Shown here: positions 445 to 64,000 of the stretch, one piece after another
Numbering within the stretch: the stretch's first letter is position 1
Layout of the letters: each line of letters opens with the position of its first letter
Assembly (NCBI GenBank): GCA_024235015.1
Contig: JACKNG010000001.1
Span: 77,934 to 141,933, forward strand
Length of the DNA stretch: 64,000 nucleotides
Reading direction: 5' to 3'
Source: Gammaproteobacteria bacterium
Lineage (GTDB): Bacteria > Pseudomonadota > Gammaproteobacteria > Ga0077536
Translations under genes and position numbers: made by a program
Notes under the pieces: model-generated
What the model was told of the DNA's origin: nothing
The model's database searches: none
The model's input: the letters and a program-made list of their open reading frames with translations, nothing else

Positions 445-3400
445 TTGCGTGCAGCGCCGCATTTTCTGGTAGCTTGGACCCGTCCCACGTTTTCGAGTCC
501 GTCGTCGATGTCCGCCTCCAGAATCCTGCCCGGCGTGCTCACCCTGCTCGCCCTGGGGGCCTGTCTCGCGCTGTCCTGGATGGCCGAGGTCATCATCGTC
601 GAGCAGGCCCGCCGGCACGAGCGCGAGCATGTCGCCGACCAGCTCGACGCCCTGCGCCTGCGCATCGAGAAGCTGGTTGCCCGGGATATCTACTCCATCC
701 GCGGCCTCGCCACCTACGTCGAGGCGCGTCCGGGTCTCGACGCCGACGAGTTCGACGCCTTCGCGGCGCGCCTGGTCGACGCCGACTCGGCCATCCGTCA
801 CGTCGCCGCCGCACCGGACCTGGTGATTCGCTACGTCTACCCGCGCGAGGGCAACGAAGCGGCGCTCGGTTTTGCCTATCACGACGACGCCCTGCAGCAG
901 GCCGCCGCGGAACGCGCGGCCCGCAGCGACGACATTGTCGTCGCCGGACCGCTGGAACTGGTCCAGGGCGGCAGCGCTTTCGTCGCCCGCACGGCGGTGT
1001 GGACCCACGATGCCGCCGGCGCCGCCCGCCTGTGGGGACTGGTGGCGGTCATCATCGACAGCGGGCGCTTCTATGCCGCGGCCGGCCTGCTCGACGACGC
1101 GGCGCCGCTCGAAGTCGCGCTGCGCGGGCGCGATGCCACCGGTGCCGAGGGCCCGGCGTTCTTCGGCGATGCCAGCCTGTTCGAGCAGGACGTGGTTACC
1201 GGCTTCGCCGCGCTGCCGGTCGGTGGTTGGCAGATCGCGGCACGCCCGCGCCAGGGTTGGACGGCAGCGCACGCCGCCCCGGTGTGGTTGCCGCGCGCGT
1301 TCGGTGCCGGTGCCATGGTCCTGGTCGTGGCCTTCGCCGCCTTCCACGATCGTTTTCGCCGCGACCGCGCCGCGGCCGACCGCGCGGTGCACGAATCGCA
1401 GACCGACTTCCGCCTGCTGTTCGAGAACGTCAACGACGCCATCTTCATCCGCGACACGCCCAGCGGGCGCGTGATCGACGCCAACGTGCAGGCGGCCCGT
1501 TACCTCGGCTATCCCCGCGAGGCGCTGATCGGCATGTGCGTGTCGGACATCTATGCGACCGGCGACGACGGCGAACTCGAGCGCATCACCGCCCGGATCA
1601 AGAACCACGGTTCGGCCGTGTTCCAGGCCCGGCATCGCCGTGCCGACGGCAGCCTGGCCACGGTCGAAGTCTCCGCGCGTCGCGTGCAGCGCCCGGCCAG
1701 CGACGTCATCATCTCGGTGGTGCGCGACGTCACCGAGCGTGAGAGCGCCGCCGCCGCCCTGCGCCGCAGCCAGCAGGACCTGGTCAACTCGATCGAATCG
1801 ATCAGCGAAGGGTTTGCGCTGTGGGATCGCGACGACTGCCTGCAGGTCTACAACCGGCGCATGCTGGAGCTGTCGCCGCACCTCGAACCCTGCCTGGCGG
1901 TCGGCGTGCGCTTCGTCGACATGGTTGCCTATACCTATGACCAGGGCATCGTCAGCCATGAAATGCCGCGCGAGGACTGGATCGCCGCACGCCTGCGCCA
2001 GCATCGCGAACCAGGCGAACCGCTCGAGATCCTGAGCGAGACCGGCCGCTACCTGCGCATCTCCGAGCACCGTACCCCGGACGGCTACATCGTCGGCATC
2101 TACACCGACATCACCGCCATCAAGCAGGCCGAGGAGCACATCCGCTACCGGGCCTACTTCGACATGCTCACGGATCTGCCCAACCGCGAGAACTTCATGT
2201 CCCAGCTCGAGGCCACGGTGCGGCTGGCGCAGCGCAACCGCACCCTCTCGGCGCTGCTCTTCGTCGATCTCGACCGCTTCAAGAACGTCAACGACACCCT
2301 CGGCCACCAGACCGGTGACCTCTTGTTGCAGGAAGCCGCACGGCGCATCTGCCACAGCGTGCGCAATTCCGACATCGTGGCGCGCTTCGGCGGCGACGAG
2401 TTCGCCGTCATCCTGCGCGACATCGCCGAGACCAACGACGCCGCGCGCATCGCCGAGACCATCATCGGGCGCCTCGCCGAGGGCTACGTACTCGACGAGC
2501 AGGTGCTGTACTGCGGCGCCAGCATCGGCATCACGGTCTGTCCGAGCGACAGCGTCGAGCCGGAAGTCCTGCTGCGCAATGCGGACATGGCCATGTACCA
2601 GGCCAAGGCACTGGGTCGTAACACCTTCCGCTTCTTCACCGCGTCGATGACGGCACGCGCCGAGCAATTCGTGGCCCTGGAGAAGGATCTGCGCCGCTCC
2701 ATCGGCAGCGACGAGTTCGAACTCCACTACCAGCCGGTCATCCGCCTCGACGACGGCGCCCTGGGTGGCGCCGAGGCCCTGCTGCGCTGGCACCACCCCG
2801 AGCGCGGCACGGTCTCGCCGGCCGAGTTCATCCCGGTTGCCGAAGAGACCCGCCTCATCGTCGAGCTCGGCGCCTGGGTCCTGGAACGGGCCTGCCGCGA
2901 AATGCTCGAGTGGGTGGGGCCGAACGGCGCCCTGCCCCACCTTGCCCTGAACGTCTCCAGCCGCCAGCTGTGGGGTGGTTTCGATGGCGATTTCGTCCGC
3001 GGCGTGTTGAACGCGACGGGTTTCCCGGGAGAGCACCTCAAGTTCGAGATGACCGAGTCGCTGCTGATCGAGGACGACGAACGGGCCTCGGCCATCCTCG
3101 GCGATTTCCGCGACCTCGGCATCGGCATCTCGATCGACGATTTCGGTACCGGCTACTCGGCCCTCGGCTACCTGCGCCGCTTCCCCGTCACCACGCTCAA
3201 GATCGATCGCAGCTTCGTGCGCGACATCGAGGTCGACCGCAGCGACGCCAGCCTGGTCGAATCGATCATCGCCATGGCCCGGGCGCTGGGCATCGACGTC
3301 GTCGCCGAAGGGGTGGAGACGGCGGGCCAGGCGGCGATGTTGCGCGCCATGGGCTGCCAGTACGCGCAGGGCTTCCTGTTCGGGCGACCACAGCCGCGCG

Positions 3401-3453
3401 CCCGCTTCGCGGCCGATTTCGTCACCACCACGGACCGCCGGGCTGGCGGTTGA
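445..3453 (+). CDS. Membrane-anchored CHASE-PAS-PAS-GGDEF-EAL cyclic-di-GMP signalling protein
   Basis: 1002-aa ORF. N-terminal hydrophobic segment (LTLLALGACLALSW) and a second TM (WLPRAFGAGAMVLVVAFAAF) flank a CHASE-like periplasmic region, followed by PAS repeats, an intact RFGGDEF motif, and EAL motifs (EALLRW, DDFGTG). The more likely start is the ATG at 508 (MSASRILPGVL). Confidence 0.85.
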   Translation: MRAAPHFLVAWTRPTFSSPSSMSASRILPGVLTLLALGACLALSWMAEVIIVEQARRHEREHVADQLDALRLRIEKLVARDIYSIRGLATYVEARPGLDADEFDAFAARLVDADSAIRHVAAAPDLVIRYVYPREGNEAALGFAYHDDALQQAAAERAARSDDIVVAGPLELVQGGSAFVARTAVWTHDAAGAARLWGLVAVIIDSGRFYAAAGLLDDAAPLEVALRGRDATGAEGPAFFGDASLFEQDVVTGFAALPVGGWQIAARPRQGWTAAHAAPVWLPRAFGAGAMVLVVAFAAFHDRFRRDRAAADRAVHESQTDFRLLFENVNDAIFIRDTPSGRVIDANVQAARYLGYPREALIGMCVSDIYATGDDGELERITARIKNHGSAVFQARHRRADGSLATVEVSARRVQRPASDVIISVVRDVTERESAAAALRRSQQDLVNSIESISEGFALWDRDDCLQVYNRRMLELSPHLEPCLAVGVRFVDMVAYTYDQGIVSHEMPREDWIAARLRQHREPGEPLEILSETGRYLRISEHRTPDGYIVGIYTDITAIKQAEEHIRYRAYFDMLTDLPNRENFMSQLEATVRLAQRNRTLSALLFVDLDRFKNVNDTLGHQTGDLLLQEAARRICHSVRNSDIVARFGGDEFAVILRDIAETNDAARIAETIIGRLAEGYVLDEQVLYCGASIGITVCPSDSVEPEVLLRNADMAMYQAKALGRNTFRFFTASMTARAEQFVALEKDLRRSIGSDEFELHYQPVIRLDDGALGGAEALLRWHHPERGTVSPAEFIPVAEETRLIVELGAWVLERACREMLEWVGPNGALPHLALNVSSRQLWGGFDGDFVRGVLNATGFPGEHLKFEMTESLLIEDDERASAILGDFRDLGIGISIDDFGTGYSALGYLRRFPVTTLKIDRSFVRDIEVDRSDASLVESIIAMARALGIDVVAEGVETAGQAAMLRAMGCQYAQGFLFGRPQPRARFAADFVTTTDRRAGG

Positions 3454-3493
3454 GGCACGGTCGGGCCGGGCGCGCTGCGGGCTGCGGCGGCGC

Positions 3494-4351
3494 TCAGCGC
3501 GCGCCGACGCGGACCAGGCCCTCCTGGGCCACGGACACCACCAGCCGTCCGGCGGCATCGTAGAAGCTGCCGCGCGCCAGCCCGCGCGCACCGGCCGAAC
3601 TCACGCCTTCGCAGACGTAGAGCAACCAGTCGTCCATGCGGAAAGGCCGGTGGAACCACATCGCATGGTCGAGGCTGGCGAGGAAGATGTTCTCGTCGGT
3701 GGGGCGCACGCCCTGCGGCATGAGCAGGGTCGTGATCAGGCCGTAGTCCGACAGGTAGGCGAGGATGGCGCGGTGCAGATCGGTGTCGTCGGGCAGGCGG
3801 TCGACGGTGCGCAGCCACACGCGGCGCAGCGGCGGCGTGCCCGGCGCGGTGTCACCGAAATAGGCATCGATGGGCCGGAACTCGAACGGCGCGGCGATGC
3901 TTGCGATGCGCTGGACCTTGGGCGAGGCACCCTCGAGGTTGAGCTGGTCGAAGGTCACGCGGGCAAGTTCGCCGGGCGGCGGCACCGCGGGCATGGCGCC
4001 CTGGTACTCGATGCCGTCCTCGCTTTTGTGGAAAGACGCTTCGAGGGTGAAGATCGGCCGGCCGTTCTGTACCGCGGTGACACGACGGGCAGAGAAGCTG
4101 CCGCCGTCGCGACTGCGATCGACCTCGTAGATCACGGGCCTGGCCGACAGCGCCTCGCGCAGGAAGTAGGCATGGATGGAATGCACCGCGCGCGCCTCGA
4201 CGGTCGACTGCGCGGCCTTGATCGCCTCGCCCAGCACCTTGCCGCCGTAGACCCGTGGCAGGTGGGTGTCGCTGATGGCGCCGCGGAACAGGTTGTCCTC
4301 GAGACGTTCGAGTTCGAGGGCGTTAACCAGGCGTTCGAGGGCGGCGTCCAC
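3494..4351 (-). CDS. tesB: Acyl-CoA thioesterase II
   Basis: Strong end-to-end similarity to E. coli TesB (LFRG..., SFSARRV.A.QNG.PIF, HSMWFHRP, RGEFY..G.LVASTVQEG). There is no in-frame ATG at the right length; a GTG at 4351 gives 285 aa matching TesB length and sits 8 bp after the panB stop. The track's 350-aa version has an implausible Ser/Thr/Arg-rich extension. Confidence 0.8.
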   Translation of the reverse strand: MDAALERLVNALELERLEDNLFRGAISDTHLPRVYGGKVLGEAIKAAQSTVEARAVHSIHAYFLREALSARPVIYEVDRSRDGGSFSARRVTAVQNGRPIFTLEASFHKSEDGIEYQGAMPAVPPPGELARVTFDQLNLEGASPKVQRIASIAAPFEFRPIDAYFGDTAPGTPPLRRVWLRTVDRLPDDTDLHRAILAYLSDYGLITTLLMPQGVRPTDENIFLASLDHAMWFHRPFRMDDWLLYVCEGVSSAGARGLARGSFYDAAGRLVVSVAQEGLVRVGAR

Positions 4352-4358
4352 GGCGTTC

Positions 4359-5177
4359 TCAGCGGAAGGCGTATTCGTCGCTTGGGAAGGTGCCGCCGCG
4401 GACCTCGTTGACGTAGGTCTCGAGCGCGCCGTGGATCGAGCCTTCCTGCTCCATGTAGTTCTTCGAGAAGCGGGTGCGCTTGCCGGGGAAGATGTCGAGC
4501 ACGTCGTAGAGGACGAGGATCTGGCCGTCGACGTGGGGGCCGGCACCGATACCGATGACCGGCACCCCGGCGGCAGCGGTGATGTCGGCGGCGAGGTCGA
4601 TGGGCACGCATTCCAGCAGCAGCACGTCGGCGCCGGCCTCTTCCAGCGCGCGGGCGTCGTCCTTCATCTTCTGCGCCGCCTTTGCTTCGCGGCCCTGTAC
4701 GCGGTAGCCGCCGAACTTGTGGATGGCCTGCGGGGTGAGGCCGAGGTGGGCGCACACCGGCACGCCGCACTCGGTGAGGCGCGCGACCATGTCGATTTCG
4801 AGCTCACCCCATTCGAGTTTGACGATCTCCGCCCCGCCCTCCTTCATCAGGCGCGCGGCGTTGCGCAGGCAGTCGGCCGGCGACGAGTAGCTCATGAACG
4901 GCATGTCGGCCATGATCATCGCGCGCCGCGTGCCGCGCGCGACCATCTGGGTGTGGTACACGATGTGGTCGACGGTGACCGGGATGGTGGTGGCCTGACC
5001 CTGCACCACCATGCCGAGCGAATCGCCGACCAGGATGAAGTCGATGCCGACGCGGTCGAGGGCATGGGCGAAGGCGGCGTCGTAGGCCGTCATGCTCGCG
5101 ATCTTCTCGCCGCGCTCCTTCATCAGGCGCAGGGTACGCACCGTGACCTTGTCCGCCATGTCCTGCTGTGCGCTCAT
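4359..5177 (-). CDS. panB: 3-methyl-2-oxobutanoate hydroxymethyltransferase (ketopantoate hydroxymethyltransferase)
   Basis: 272 aa, collinear with E. coli PanB: TAYD..FA, LVGDSLGM..QG...PVT, AHLGLTPQ, GGY.VQGR, VLECVP, IPVIGIGAG...DGQILV. Confidence 0.9.
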   Translation of the reverse strand: MSAQQDMADKVTVRTLRLMKERGEKIASMTAYDAAFAHALDRVGIDFILVGDSLGMVVQGQATTIPVTVDHIVYHTQMVARGTRRAMIMADMPFMSYSSPADCLRNAARLMKEGGAEIVKLEWGELEIDMVARLTECGVPVCAHLGLTPQAIHKFGGYRVQGREAKAAQKMKDDARALEEAGADVLLLECVPIDLAADITAAAGVPVIGIGAGPHVDGQILVLYDVLDIFPGKRTRFSKNYMEQEGSIHGALETYVNEVRGGTFPSDEYAFR

Positions 5178-7911: not shown

Positions 7912-7964
7912 AAATCGGGGACAGACCACGGTTTCCGCCGGAAACCGTGGTCTGTCCCCGATTT
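7912..7964. repeat. Perfect ~26-bp-arm palindrome AAATCGGGGACAGACCACGGTTTCCG-c-CGGAAACCGTGGTCTGTCCCCGATTT (REP-like, GGGGACAG-headed)
   Basis: Read directly from the sequence in the 147-bp gap between the acyl-CoA synthetase stop and the MaoC start; a near-perfect hairpin with a 1-nt centre. Coordinates ±2. Confidence 0.7.
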
Positions 7965-18082: not shown

Positions 18083-18107
18083 GGGGACAGTTAGGAAAAC
18101 TGTCCCC
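18083..18107. repeat. Palindrome GGGGACAGTT-aggaa-AACTGTCCCC (REP-like, GGGGACAG family) in the convergent intergenic region
   Basis: 10-bp perfect arms with a 5-nt loop, 28 bp after the cytochrome c stop. Confidence 0.65.
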
Positions 18108-30384: not shown

Positions 30385-30450
30385 GGGGACAGTATACTTT
30401 CGCACGCGCTGTGGGCCGGCCCGTGCGCCGGGCGAAAGTATACTGTCCCC
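30385..30450. repeat. Long hairpin GGGGACAGTATACTTTCGC-N28-GCGAAAGTATACTGTCCCC (GGGGACAG palindrome family) between the acxC-like and acxA-like genes
   Basis: 19-bp perfect arms with an internal AT-rich GTATAC core; the spacer is itself partly palindromic (CGCACG...CGTGCG, GGGCCGGCCC). Confidence 0.7.
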
Positions 30451-60427: not shown

Positions 60428-60937
60428 TCAATGCATGCCAGCGCGTGTGAACTGCACCGCGACGGCGCAAAGATACAGGCCTATTCCAAATATCGAATGG
60501 GACATCAAAGTCTTGAGCCGGGCGACGGTGGGATTCGGCGTGTTCGAAGAGGCCACGCCCATTCCGAAACAAGGCTGCATGACGAAAAAAGGGAAGACCA
60601 TCGTGGCGAGGCCGAACAGCAGCGCAGGCAGAACCGATGGCCGAGCCAGCCATGCACCGGACATCAACACGACCAGCGCAAGGCCATAGACCCCACCGAT
60701 CGCGTAATGCGCCGCCCAGCCCACGGCACATTCGTGCGGCCTCGATTCCGCCCCGGCGATGCTCGTGTGCACGAAGCGGCCACTCGGCATGTGGCAGAAC
60801 CAGCGCCCGACGATGCACCAGTTCGTCGGCGCGATTCCCACGGTGAATTTCAACGTGATGGCCCAGAGATCCAGGACCGCTGTCGCACCCAGGCCTACCA
60901 GGAGCGCCACCCCGAAGGGCTCGGTATCGATGGTCAT
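60428..60937 (-). CDS. DUF2938-like small membrane protein
   Basis: 169 aa with 4 predicted TM segments; GC (~60%) already lower than the bulk of the window. Confidence 0.5.
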   Translation of the reverse strand: MTIDTEPFGVALLVGLGATAVLDLWAITLKFTVGIAPTNWCIVGRWFCHMPSGRFVHTSIAGAESRPHECAVGWAAHYAIGGVYGLALVVLMSGAWLARPSVLPALLFGLATMVFPFFVMQPCFGMGVASSNTPNPTVARLKTLMSHSIFGIGLYLCAVAVQFTRAGMH

Positions 60938-60985
60938 GCTCGCGACCCCGGTTACGATTTGTAGCGTCGGATTCTAGCGTGAGAT

Positions 60986-61766
60986 GGTGTCAGGTTTATT
61001 TTTCGTTCAAGCCCCGGCCGGTTCCCGGCCTGCCGGGACCGAGCGCGCTCATCCGCCTTCCCAGTTTCTCCTCGATCGCCATCCGGAACCGCCTGCCGCC
61101 GGTCAACTGGTTTCGCCTAACCGCGGTGCGCACGGCCTCGTCCGTCTCGGGGCATGCCGCCGTTCTGACGAAAGCCACGTAGTTCGATAGGTCGTCGTCC
61201 GTCCCATGGGCGAGAGGTAACAGCGGCAGGGCATGCACGTCTGCCTTCGTCATTCCTGAGCGGACACTGAAACTCGACCACGGATAATCTTCCGGGGCCG
61301 CCACCATGCCGGCGCGCACCGGGTTCATTTCGATATAACGGCAGCAGGCCCAGAGATAGTCGTCGCGATCCACGAGAGAGCACTTGAAACGACCTTCCCA
61401 AAGGGTGCCGCTACGACGTTCGAGGCGATTCACGTAACGCGTTTGCCGCGCGGCTACCACGCGCATGAGTTCGGAGAGTGCATCGGGCTCGTCGTGCGGT
61501 TCGAGCAGCAGGTGGACATGGTTTGTCATCAGGCACCAGGCGTACAACCCGACTCCCCGCACCTGCATCTGTTCTATGAGGTTGTCGACGTAGTACGCAT
61601 AGTCCGCGTCGGCAGCGAAAACCGGTTTACGGTCATGCCCTCGGTGGACGACGTGATGCGGGAAGCCGGTGAGAAAGGCGCGTGGGTATCTCGGCATCTT
61701 GGAACCTCCTTGTTCCTTGATGAGTCATGGTGCCGGGTGGCTTAGTGGGAAAATAAACCTGACACC
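60986..61766. mobile_element. REP-associated tyrosine transposase (RAYT) unit bounded by perfect 17-bp inverted repeats GGTGTCAGGTTTATTTT / AAAATAAACCTGACACC
   Basis: Left inverted repeat at 60986..61002 and right at 61750..61766, read directly from the sequence; they flank the Y1-transposase gene. Coordinates ±1. Confidence 0.7.
60996..61697 (-). CDS. REP-associated tyrosine transposase (IS200/IS605 TnpA-like Y1 transposase, RAYT class)
   Basis: 233 aa from MPRYPRAFLTGFPHHVVHRGHDRKPVF..LMTNHVHLLLEP (HuH motif), with the catalytic Tyr region YPWSS typical of RAYTs. Confidence 0.8.
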   Translation of the reverse strand: MPRYPRAFLTGFPHHVVHRGHDRKPVFAADADYAYYVDNLIEQMQVRGVGLYAWCLMTNHVHLLLEPHDEPDALSELMRVVAARQTRYVNRLERRSGTLWEGRFKCSLVDRDDYLWACCRYIEMNPVRAGMVAAPEDYPWSSFSVRSGMTKADVHALPLLPLAHGTDDDLSNYVAFVRTAACPETDEAVRTAVRRNQLTGGRRFRMAIEEKLGRRMSALGPGRPGTGRGLNEK

Positions 61767-61787
61767 TTTTCTCTTGAGGCCTCAGAT

Positions 61788-62234
61788 TCACGCGACGATA
61801 CCGGTGTCGAATTCCTCGAAAACACCGTTATTGCAGCGTAGGCAAGTCCGCCCGACCATATTCTTAACGGAGAAAATGGCGGAAGCGCTGCACTTCGGGC
61901 ATTTCAATTCGTCGCGATTCAGGTCTAGGCCTGTCATATTCCCGCAAGCTTCACAGAAGCAGTCTGAAAGGAACCCGGTTCGCTTATCAAACGCCTCTTT
62001 TATTCGCGCTCGACGCGCCTTTCGATCCGAGGACCACCACCATTTTTGACCTGCGTTGAGATCGGCGAGTTCTTCTTTAGAGAATCCAAGCACTTGCGCG
62101 ACGTATTCTAATTCGCCGGGATGCGGGCAAATCTGTCGTTCCCCCAAACTCGTTGCCACATAGAACATCCCGCCCCAACCGGACGCGAGCCGCAACGCGC
62201 AGTTAGCGCACCGAATTTCGCGGATTCTCGGCAT
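61788..62234 (-). CDS. Hypothetical Cys-rich (multi-CxxC, Zn-ribbon-like) protein in the low-GC islet
   Basis: 148 aa with CANC...CPHP, CFCEAC, CPKC and CLRC; ~50% GC; a hairpin TGAGGCCTCA sits right after the stop. Confidence 0.5.
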   Translation of the reverse strand: MPRIREIRCANCALRLASGWGGMFYVATSLGERQICPHPGELEYVAQVLGFSKEELADLNAGQKWWWSSDRKARRARIKEAFDKRTGFLSDCFCEACGNMTGLDLNRDELKCPKCSASAIFSVKNMVGRTCLRCNNGVFEEFDTGIVA

Positions 62235-62239
62235 GCCGA

Positions 62240-62704
62240 TTAGGTGTTTCGTCTGTACGGGATATTGAAGACTCTCGCCAGTCCCACGTGCTCTACGGGC
62301 CGCGACTCTTGACGTTCTGATTGGCGTTGAAGCTCGTTCTTGTTTATAGCGTCCTCGATGCCGAATTTGAACATATCAATCGTGACTTGCTCAAAGAGGT
62401 CGCCCATATCGGAACTCTCTTCTCGGATACCTCGGAGCTGACTTACTACGGCGGGCAGATGCTTAACAGCGGACACTACGTGGGGCATGTGCCGACTATA
62501 GGTCTCGACGAGGGCGCCTTGGGATCTCGCCGGAAAAATGTCCTTTAGGTCAGTTAGACCACCGAAATCCTGCTGGGCTGACTTGATTGCGAAGTAATAA
62601 ATGTTGGCAATGGTGTTGACCAATTCTTCCGACAGGTCGGACGTATCGCCGAATCCGTCTCGGATAGCGGCGCGGACGCTCTCTTTGAACTTCGTTGCCG
62701 TCAT
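62240..62704 (-). CDS. Hypothetical protein in the low-GC islet
   Basis: 154 aa from MTATKFKESVRAAIRDGFGDTSDLSEELV...; AGGTGG RBS; stops 5 nt before the next gene start. Confidence 0.5.
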   Translation of the reverse strand: MTATKFKESVRAAIRDGFGDTSDLSEELVNTIANIYYFAIKSAQQDFGGLTDLKDIFPARSQGALVETYSRHMPHVVSAVKHLPAVVSQLRGIREESSDMGDLFEQVTIDMFKFGIEDAINKNELQRQSERQESRPVEHVGLARVFNIPYRRNT

Positions 62705-62722
62705 CGACGTACCACCTGAGGC

Positions 62723-62791
62723 CTAACGCCACAATGAGCCGCACTTGACGGCGACGACTGGAGCGGCAGCGAAAGGAGGAGCGGTCAAGTG
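62723..62791. repeat. Conserved upstream element, copy 1: CTAACGCC...GC(A)CTTGACGGCGAC...GGAGCGGCAGCG...GGAGCGGTCAAG
   Basis: ~70 bp homologous to 63561..63631. Contains the inverted pair CTTGAC...GTCAAG ~40 bp apart and sits ~45 bp upstream of the 62704 start codon. Confidence 0.6.
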
Positions 62792-62824
62792 TCGGCCTCG
62801 ATTGTGATGTTAGAAGGAGCTTTC

Positions 62825-63547
62825 TTACTTATCCACTGGAGGCCGCACCCGATCTAGGTATCGTGAAAGCGTTGGATTCACAACGACCTTCCCAGGTTCT
62901 TCGGAGCTTACTGATATTTGCAGGATGCCTTGTACTAGCGAATTGACTGACTTGAATGCGGCCAAAGCATCGTTCTGGATTTCGTCGATGTTCTCATCCC
63001 ATAAGTGGAAGTACTTCCTCCGCGTAGTGCGGAGATAAGTAAACGCTTCAACGTGATCTTCTGGAACGCGTTTTGTCACGGCAAGTATTCTGATCCGATG
63101 CTCTTGGCCGAGCTTTTCGAACGTGCGGCCGAAGAAAGCCCTCTCGACCTCTTCAGAGCGCTCTTCGGGGTTCTTCGAAAGAGGCTCCATCTCCCAGACA
63201 AGTTGGGCGAGCATTTCCGCGACATGTGCACAAAGCTCAATTGCGGCCAAAAACTCGCCTAAGCAATAGCACCGCTTCGCGGACTTAAAGGGAGCCAATA
63301 GCCGTTCGAATAGTTTCTCGGTATGTGGGAGAAACGGCAGGTATAGCTCCGGTGTGCTTAGTTCTGCATACCGTTCAAGCACTTCGATGGATAGAGCGGT
63401 TAAAGGCAATTCGAAGAACGACTCTGCCAACGCGTACTCATGAGACCTGCCGGGATCAATCTCCCCAGTGTGAACACGGCGAGGAAAATCGCTCCTGACC
63501 GGGACTCCCATGAAATTGAGCGTTACTTGGACCGTTCCATTGGCCAC
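62825..63547 (-). CDS. Hypothetical protein in the low-GC islet (GTG start)
   Basis: 240 aa; a GTG start follows a GAAGGAG RBS; no recognisable domain. Confidence 0.5.
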   Translation of the reverse strand: MANGTVQVTLNFMGVPVRSDFPRRVHTGEIDPGRSHEYALAESFFELPLTALSIEVLERYAELSTPELYLPFLPHTEKLFERLLAPFKSAKRCYCLGEFLAAIELCAHVAEMLAQLVWEMEPLSKNPEERSEEVERAFFGRTFEKLGQEHRIRILAVTKRVPEDHVEAFTYLRTTRRKYFHLWDENIDEIQNDALAAFKSVNSLVQGILQISVSSEEPGKVVVNPTLSRYLDRVRPPVDK

Positions 63548-63560
63548 GGATTAGCTCCTT

Positions 63561-63631
63561 CTAACGCCGCGTTAACCTGCGCTTGACGGCGACTGACCGG
63601 AGCGGCAGCGCAGGGAAGGAGCGGTCAAGCG
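63561..63631. repeat. Conserved upstream element, copy 2 (same element as 62723..62791)
   Basis: gcgCTTGACGGCGACtgaCCGGAGCGGCAGCGcagGGAaGGAGCGGTCAAGcg, at an equivalent distance upstream of the 63547 start. Confidence 0.6.
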
Positions 63632-63661
63632 TCAGGTTCAACGTTTTGTTGGGCGGCGTGT

Positions 63662-64000
63662 TCATTGATCTCGAATCTGCGAGGCCCTAATTTTCGACTC
63701 CAGATGCGGCTTCAATCTCTTTATCGTTTCCGACAGAGCGCCAATAAACCACGACGCAGCGAATGGAGAAATATAGATCTCGTCTATGAGCAGATTAACG
63801 TTTGTTCTAACGTGGCGTCCTTGGGACACATCGTAGGGTGGCGTGTAGCCAGGGTTCGAATTGGGGTTATGTAGGATAAAGAGCCTTAGCTCGTTTTCGT
63901 ATCTATAGAATTCCCGCTTGGTTGTGACCAACCGGTGCCGGCTGAGATCCGTTTCCGGAAGATAATCTCGATACTGAACTTCTCCGGCAAATATCGTTTC
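63662..64000 (-). CDS. Hypothetical protein in the low-GC islet, partial (open to the window edge)
   Basis: The track lists 63662..63931 (TTG start), but the frame stays open through 64000 (...ETIFAGEVQYRDYLPETDLSRHRLVTTKREFYRYENELRLFILHNPN...), so the gene probably starts beyond the window. Confidence 0.4.
   Translation of the reverse strand, partial: ETIFAGEVQYRDYLPETDLSRHRLVTTKREFYRYENELRLFILHNPNSNPGYTPPYDVSQGRHVRTNVNLLIDEIYISPFAASWFIGALSETIKRLKPHLESKIRASQIRDQ

Follow-up and report, generated by a model that had tools for sequence, protein, structure and literature searches.

Genes for RAYT-like proteins that lie between long terminal inverted repeats with no relation to GTAG REPs have been named TIRYTs, and the units in which they occur have been named TIRtrons (Di Nocera, De Gregorio and Rocco 2013, BMC Genomics 14:522; PMC3733652). 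The majority of TIRYT terminal repeats carry the sequence GGGGWSAS, the repeats may overlap the ends of the gene, and TIRtron repeats form moderately abundant families consisting of single copies, dimers and groups (PMC3733652). Twenty of 26 TIRYT examples fall in TnpA-Y1 subclass 2.1, which is characterized by a C-terminal extension and by having no REPs nearby (Quentin, Siguier, Chandler and Fichant 2018; PMC6006769). RAYT groups whose flanking 16-mers are just modestly repeated have been described by Bertels et al. (2017, PMC5581495), and Group 1, some members of which are found on plasmids, has the highest duplication rate among the RAYT groups at 6.2% (PMC5581495). The TnpA-REP protein processes single-stranded DNA hairpins and co-evolves with REPs (PMC8266576). 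Within the literature that was searched, the term TIRYT was not found outside PMC3733652 and PMC6006769, and searches for a biochemical study of a TIRYT, for the repeat sequence described here and for amplification of that repeat in Woeseiaceae-type MAGs found none.

The locus considered here lies in a 64-kb stretch of DNA (referred to as the window) and consists of a Y1 transposase gene between two inverted repeats. A first-pass annotation of the window had taken this arrangement to be unusual for a RAYT-type protein, but it has already been published as the TIRtron/TIRYT arrangement (PMC3733652; PMC6006769). We estimate a probability of roughly 80% that the unit at 60986-61766 (61770 if the outer A-run is included) is a TIRtron, in which an intact TIRYT gene lies between its cognate repeats and operates by a mechanism proposed by analogy.

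The transposase gene and its product

The TIRYT gene (60996-61697, minus strand) encodes a RAYT-like Y1/HUH tyrosine transposase of 233 aa. Its identification in the first-pass annotation as a Y1 transposase with the HUH motif HVHLL is borne out by the presence of NHVHLL in the open reading frame and by matches to Pfam Y1_Tnp (1.2e-9) and NCBIfam REP_Tyr_transpos (85.8 bits versus a cut-off of 80, residues 3-141). The histidines of the motif are H60 and H62, and Y121 is the candidate catalytic tyrosine. Among 44 aligned homologues these three residues, the last of which lies in an RYIEMNP helix, vary little or not at all, and the same is true of a C-terminal RNQLTG...F...GRR...GRP block; this conservation indicates that the gene is intact and under constraint. 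Homologues of about 230 aa number more than 7,700 among the matches listed.

The closest fold to the window protein is that of E. coli TnpA-REP, which has 165 aa compared with 233 aa here, and the window protein has ~90 additional C-terminal residues. These last ~90 residues are predicted to form three helices and end in a basic tail with the sequence GRP. The helix-turn-helix similarity of the C-terminal extension that has been reported for subclass 2.1 (Bac_DnaA_C, HTH_23 and HTH_28) was not recovered in the window protein. GRP with basic neighbours (residues 221-224) is kept in nearly every clade of homologues, whatever the type of repeat tail. The sequence of the GRP tail resembles that of an AT-hook, and it might contact the A-run beside the repeat head.

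The 5' untranslated region of the gene includes a hairpin, GGAAC-AAGGAG-GTTCC (61701-61716, minus strand), that lies 3 nt upstream of the ATG and carries the Shine-Dalgarno sequence in its loop. The hairpin is kept in loci L002 and L004, the stem is kept with a different loop (AGGGAG) in L017, and the first stem pair has undergone a compensatory change in L006 (TGAAC...GTTCA). It is not present in the Woeseiaceae-type relatives that were compared and is confined to the closest relatives, in which a ribosome-binding site placed in a loop may serve as a translational control element. A comparison of 60700-62000 with Rfam (E<=10) returned no match, and so a known RNA motif explains neither the 5' untranslated region nor the repeats.

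The inverted repeat pair in the window

The 64-kb window has two exact copies of GGTGTCAGGTTTATTTT and no more, in inverted orientation at 60986-61002 (plus strand) and 61750-61766, and together they bracket the intact open reading frame, as expected from the earlier description of perfect 17-bp terminal inverted repeats around the Y1 gene. The same two copies are the only ones at up to 3 mismatches, compared with a chance expectation of 0.01 and with 0 of 100 shuffled sequences that reach two copies, and degenerate copies were not found in the window with a 21-nt query that included the A-run and allowed up to 5 mismatches. A chance inverted repeat can be dismissed as an explanation, given the expectation of 0.01 per window and the conservation of the repeat across dozens of loci.

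The upstream (5') terminal inverted repeat (61750-61770, minus strand) reads AAAA-GGTGTCAGGTTTATTTT on the gene strand and is made up of the perfect 17-nt core (61750-61766) and an outer A-run (61767-61770), with 52 nt between its inner end and the ATG. The downstream (3') terminal inverted repeat (60986-61002, plus strand) encodes the last lysine and includes the TAA stop codon at 60996-60998, in agreement with the overlap of the left repeat and the gene stop seen in the first-pass annotation. The inverted pair can be extended, imperfectly, to 33 nt (60981-61013 and 61739-61771, 79% complementary), and the inner part of the 33-nt left arm (60981-61013) is coding and has degenerated. The head of the repeat is GGTGTCAG, which matches GGGGWSAS at seven of eight positions and has T for G at position 3.

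A single repeat has no secondary structure as single-stranded DNA (0 to -1 kcal/mol, z about +0.6), from which it follows that the repeats are not REP palindromes, and no GT[AG]G-tagged palindrome was found in either flank of the 60986-61766 unit. The earlier distinction between terminal inverted repeats and REP hairpins is therefore upheld by unfolded single arms and the lack of a GTAG hairpin. No target-site duplication was found at the ends of the cassette, and promoter and terminator scans of the cassette found nothing at the repeats.

Repeats around homologous genes

Proteins encoded at related loci are 72-74% (L002/L003 and L004/L005), 58-59% (L006 and L017) and 53% (L008) identical to the window protein. 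The genes of L002-L006, L017 and L008 have unrelated neighbourhoods, and all of them are bracketed by a common motif with its head outward, so the inverted repeats are kept at homologous loci, the question on which the first-pass annotation had made its reading depend. In L006 both flanking repeats are the exact 17-mer. The upstream repeat is identical in sequence and polarity in L002, L004, L006, L069, L078, L124, L141 and L169, and in most relatives it is located 52-120 nt from the ATG. The downstream repeat extends over the stop codon in all five homologues examined (TAA or TAG within AAATAAACC / AAATAGACC). Flanking inverted repeats with a score of at least 13 were found at 64 of 80 assessable homologous loci, which came mostly from a metagenome scan and encode proteins 33-52% identical to the query, versus 1 of 80 when the downstream flank was shuffled. 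GGGGWSAS is present with at most one mismatch in 56 of these 64 locus repeats and is exact in 25. A relative in Pseudomonas aeruginosa has a perfect 32-nt repeat with an inner part, TTTTCCCTACTCTAAT, similar to that of the window repeat.

The type of repeat follows the protein clade on a neighbour-joining tree, with GGTGYCRGGTTTATTT in the clade of the window protein, GGGGACAGATTTATTT, GGGGACAGACCACGTTT and GGGGCCAGGCTC in other clades and further types besides, and the outer A-run and G-rich head are common to all repeat clades. This co-diversification of repeat and protein argues for a specific protein-DNA recognition, since the repeat that each protein would recognize tracks the protein tree. 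The exact 17-mer flanks homologues that have merely 46-58% protein identity to the window protein, and judging from these comparisons the terminal repeats of the TIRYT family have diverged far less than its proteins.

These observations bear on whether the unit could be a classical REPtron, in which an ordinary RAYT gene is accompanied by REP hairpins that have decayed to an accidental inverted repeat. The match to the NCBIfam REP_Tyr_transpos equivalog above its cut-off and the closeness of the fold to E. coli TnpA-REP agree with such an origin, which nevertheless appears very improbable: neither end has a GT[AG]G-tagged palindrome, a repeat on its own does not fold, subclass 2.1 had no REPs in the work of Quentin et al. 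(PMC6006769), and a non-palindromic repeat that is exact across proteins 46-58% identical is not a decayed one.

Locus L008 (Chromatiales, CP070671.1) also has solo copies of a repeat variant at 577-593 and 3322-3338, at the ends of genes neighbouring the TIRtron; the genes that end in these solo repeats are a patatin gene and a dnstrm_HI1420 gene.

Dispersal of the 17-mer in other genomes

Exact copies of the 17-mer were sought in one genome per species; at least 120 rows matched, those listed do not include the source genome, and the copy numbers are lower bounds. About half of the assemblies among the matches listed have single, chance-like matches and belong to unrelated phyla, and the remaining assemblies are MAGs of Woeseiaceae and other uncultured Gammaproteobacteria, each represented by many stretches. 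At least 11-30 copies of the exact 17-mer are present in each of eight MAGs among the matches listed. The first-pass annotation had made its reading depend on the 17-mer not being an abundant ordinary repeat; in other genomes it is one, with many dispersed copies to an assembly in MAGs of Woeseiaceae and other Gammaproteobacteria, most of them in clusters and in convergent pairs able to form hairpins. Neighbouring copies within 150 bp of each other are convergent (+-) in 63 cases and divergent (-+) in one, and the others are tandem, again among the matches listed. The convergent pairs have the form AAAAAGGTGTCAGGTTTATTTT-loop-AAAATAAACCTGACACCTTTTT, with stems of ~22 bp and a single-stranded DNA fold of -26 kcal/mol (z -10). 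Because it is dispersed and occurs mostly as convergent pairs able to form hairpins, the 17-mer is, to judge by its distribution, the REP-equivalent of its clade in Woeseiaceae and gammaproteobacterial MAGs. The lack of a third copy in 64 kb would be unlikely at the copy densities of the MAGs.

Most copies of the 17-mer elsewhere are gene-less. Six MAG stretches have an uninterrupted TIRYT gene, the product of which is 46-52% identical to the window protein, between a plus and a minus copy, and extra repeat copies are often stacked on each side of the TIRYT genes in the MAG stretches, as in a REPtron. One copy of the TIRYT gene per MAG was present in the sampled stretches. The gene-bearing unit and the short convergent pairs thus share one polarity, with the gene replacing the loop. 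In a seventh stretch, L171 (about 2844-4756), the homologue is split, with residues 1-118 and 115-218 encoded about 1.2 kb apart, which suggests that the gene was interrupted by an insertion.

The loops of 60 convergent pairs are mostly unrelated to each other, with only two recurring loop groups. They range from 2 to 52 nt, and 9 of the 60 are palindromic (pairs of L057-L176). Replication of whole pairs, as in REPINs, was considered and set aside when the test of loop similarity mostly failed, and with loops that are mostly unrelated the replicating unit is not clearly the pair. The loop sequences suggest that the replicating unit may be the monomer or, alternatively, that pairs may form around pre-existing hairpins. 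Some pair loops (e.g. in L087 and L065) resemble GC-rich terminator stems, as if the copies flank hairpins that were already there.

Thirty-four full copies have a tandem partial copy on the outer side, mostly 12-14 nt in length, that consists of variable flank, the A-run and the start of the head. Examples are found in L057-L176 (e.g. L065, L082, L083, L090 and L161) and in L002 (about 2890-2937), L008 (about 2705-2745) and L017 (about 1840-1942). The partial copy ends after nucleotide 6 or 7 of the head (GGTGTC^AGG) in 26 of the 34, and this fixed breakpoint suggests a joining site, possibly that of the enzyme. A phage-borne element was also considered as a source of the repeat and was rejected, as viral contigs with GGTGYCRGGTTTATTT amount to 39 singletons and no pairs, which equals background.

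It could be argued that the repeats have no role in DNA mobility and are purely regulatory or structural, the upstream copy being an operator for autoregulation and the downstream copy an end-of-gene signal. Their positions relative to the gene are fixed, the downstream copy containing the stop codon and the upstream copy being separated from the ATG by 52-120 nt in most relatives; the three-helix C-terminus and basic GRP tail of the protein could bind double-stranded DNA; and the convergent pairs, with their A-run, stem and T-run, resemble bidirectional terminators. Such sites would leave unexplained the tens of gene-less copies per genome, the clusters, the 63:1 orientation bias, the partial head duplications with a fixed breakpoint and the occurrence of matching cassettes at two sites in one genome (see below), and no promoter-like or terminator-like site was found at the repeats. 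A purely regulatory function is for these reasons quite unlikely.

Other hairpins in the window

Three other hairpins in the window, all perfect or near-perfect, start with GGGGACAG, end with CTGTCCCC and have an exact GGGGWSAS head. The first, at 7917-7959, is the perfect hairpin GGGGACAGACCACGGTTTCC-GCC-GGAAACCGTGGTCTGTCCCC, which is formed by two convergent copies of a sister repeat type and folds as single-stranded DNA with -30 kcal/mol (z -10.8). One mismatch and one indel separate it from the TIRYT-flanking repeats of L225, L228, L233 and L239 (AAATCAGGGACAGACCACGTTTT). The second is a short hairpin at 18083-18107, GGGGACAGTT-AGGAA-AACTGTCCCC, with a GGGGWSAS head and a fold of -11.2 kcal/mol (z -5.3). 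The third is a long hairpin at 30385-30450, GGGGACAGTATACTTTCGC...GCGAAAGTATACTGTCCCC, which is located between the genes for hydantoinase B and hydantoinase A and has a fold of -30.6 kcal/mol (z -7.6). The first-pass annotation had judged the GGGGACAG palindromes of the window to be unrelated to the inverted repeats, a view at odds with the shared GGGGWSAS head and with the nearness of 7917-7959 to the repeats of a sister clade. Given that nearness to sister TIRYT repeats, the source genome probably has, or formerly had, a second TIRYT system outside the window.

Genomic context and mobility of the cassette

The context genes of the window are ordinary chromosomal genes. CysI encoded in the window has an identical counterpart in MAG GCA_020425885.1, which is labelled Planctomycetes and has the protein on a contig of 1,965 bp, and the next relatives are 65% identical. 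The source lineage is uncultured and, because the next CysI relatives are so distant, poorly sampled, and the label is doubtful. There is no tnpB-like neighbour, and the open reading frames that adjoin the cassette are without family matches.

A low-GC islet (61788-64000) begins 22 nt beyond the upstream repeat, counted from its outer end, and runs past the end of the window; it has a GC content of 47-54% and four small open reading frames on the minus strand, the first of which encodes 148 aa with many CxxC pairs. The open reading frames of the islet (61788-63931) gave no convincing family in Pfam, PHROG or PADLOC.

With its sharp, repeat-bounded ends the cassette is indeed the discrete unit that the first-pass annotation had described. 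One possibility is that this cassette of ~0.8 kb is itself the mobile unit, an autonomous IS-like element of which the repeats are the ends. Such repeat-bounded units are found in unrelated contexts, as an element of this kind would be, and the GC content of the cassette is 61% versus 70% for the bulk of the window. The GC3 of the TIRYT gene (0.74), on the other hand, lies just below the values of its high-GC neighbours (0.77-0.82) and well above those of the islet (0.56-0.62), so that the gene looks neither like part of the islet nor freshly acquired with it.

The clearest signs of movement come from P. aeruginosa NZ_CP116719.1 (L257), which has three TIRYT cassettes with 32-nt repeats. Two of these cassettes are ~99% identical exactly from repeat outer end to repeat outer end and have unrelated flanks, and the third is included in a shared duplication with a left junction that is exactly that repeat outer end. 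Mobility of the whole cassette at the window locus is plausible by analogy, because this relative has two nearly identical repeat-bounded copies. Homologues on plasmids are rare (22 of 72,556 records), and one is present on a mobilizable Iodobacter plasmid, which is also in keeping with an autonomous element, as would be, if the window protein belongs to RAYT Group 1, the duplication rate of 6.2% and the plasmid members of that group (PMC5581495). Several observations count against autonomy. The cassette is present as a single copy in the window and as one per MAG in the sampled stretches, the context of P0111 is identical in all samples, the window cassette has no target-site duplication at its ends, and most repeat copies in other genomes are gene-less. 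Taken together, these observations make an autonomous IS-like element unlikely, though less so than purely regulatory repeats.

The 24-kb P. aeruginosa record (L257, 1-24299) resembles a CdiA/polymorphic-toxin orphan array, in which eight solo repeat copies lie between toxin/immunity cassettes. One TIRYT cassette directly follows a truncated filamentous-haemagglutinin-like open reading frame, and CAT precedes all three cassettes.

Proposed mechanism and significance

If the unit is a TIRtron as we propose, two copies of a cognate repeat of ~21 nt, (A)nGGTGTCAGGTTTATTTT, would bracket the TIRYT gene with their heads outward, and this repeat would fill the role that the REP has for classical RAYTs. 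Being non-palindromic, it would form a hairpin only through two paired inverted copies. By analogy with TnpA-REP and IS200/IS605, the inverted copies would pair on single-stranded DNA, for example on the lagging-strand template, the enzyme would recognize the conserved head (GGGGWSAS, here GGTGTCAG) where the stem begins, and the HUH/Tyr centre would cut and rejoin one strand. Short convergent pairs and clusters would spread in trans in permissive genomes, and the whole gene-bearing pair would be moved occasionally. Since the gene-flanking pair is the only one visible in the window, the TIRYT system looks quiescent or recently arrived in this genome.

The TIRtron arrangement and the GGGGWSAS head were already known, and the window locus is a textbook example of that arrangement. 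What the survey adds is the great size of the TIRYT family (more than 7,700 proteins among the matches listed), the strong conservation of its repeats and their co-diversification with the enzyme, and the amplification of one repeat type, which has reached many copies per genome in Gammaproteobacteria of marine sediments. The fixed breakpoint in the head (GGTGTC^AGG), the unrelated loops of the pairs and the repeat-bounded junctions in the toxin array of P. aeruginosa lead us to a further and tentative suggestion, for which we would claim a rather low probability, that TIRYT systems constitute a large second branch of RAYT/REP systems with a different substrate logic, in which the substrate is a non-palindromic monomer of ~21 nt and a Y1 core is combined with a C-terminal three-helix/GRP reader. 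If that suggestion is true, cutting would occur site-specifically within the head, and the enzyme would be a junction-maker or cassette shuffler and not a replicator in the style of REPINs. Defined pairs of repeat and enzyme, together with a predicted cut site, would permit a direct in vitro test.

Comparison with described systems

IS200/IS605 TnpA elements differ from the window unit in that the latter lacks subterminal hairpins and tnpB and has true terminal inverted repeats. IS200/IS605 elements also occur in multiple identical copies, whereas the window unit is single in 64 kb and TIRYT cassettes are usually single.

RAYT/REPtron/REPIN systems (Nunvar 2010; Bertels and Rainey 2011; Ton-Hoang 2012) share with the window unit a single-copy HUH/Tyr gene between inverted copies of a repeat, which for the window unit is dispersed in other genomes, the frequent occurrence of that repeat in convergent, hairpin-forming pairs and the co-diversification of protein and repeat. 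They differ in that the TIRYT monomer is non-palindromic and without the GT[AG]G tag, and in that the TIRYT protein has ~90 extra C-terminal residues. Whole doublets are conserved in REPIN populations, whereas the loops of the 17-mer pairs are mostly unrelated.

The TnpA-Y1 proteins of subclass 2.1 (Quentin et al. 2018) resemble the window protein in their length, in the conserved extension that follows the HUH/Y core and in having no canonical REP nearby, and this subclass was equated with TIRYT by its authors. The TIRYT/TIRtron of Di Nocera et al. (2013) differs from the window unit in that the head of the window repeat, GGTGTCAG, agrees with GGGGWSAS at seven of eight positions and has T for G at position 3, and in that the host of the window unit is an uncultured, poorly sampled lineage. 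Both have a Y1 RAYT-like protein that is longer than classical RAYTs, non-GTAG terminal inverted repeats at similar distances from the gene, possible overlap of a repeat with the 3' end of the gene and, in some genomes, repeats that are present as single, dimeric and grouped copies.
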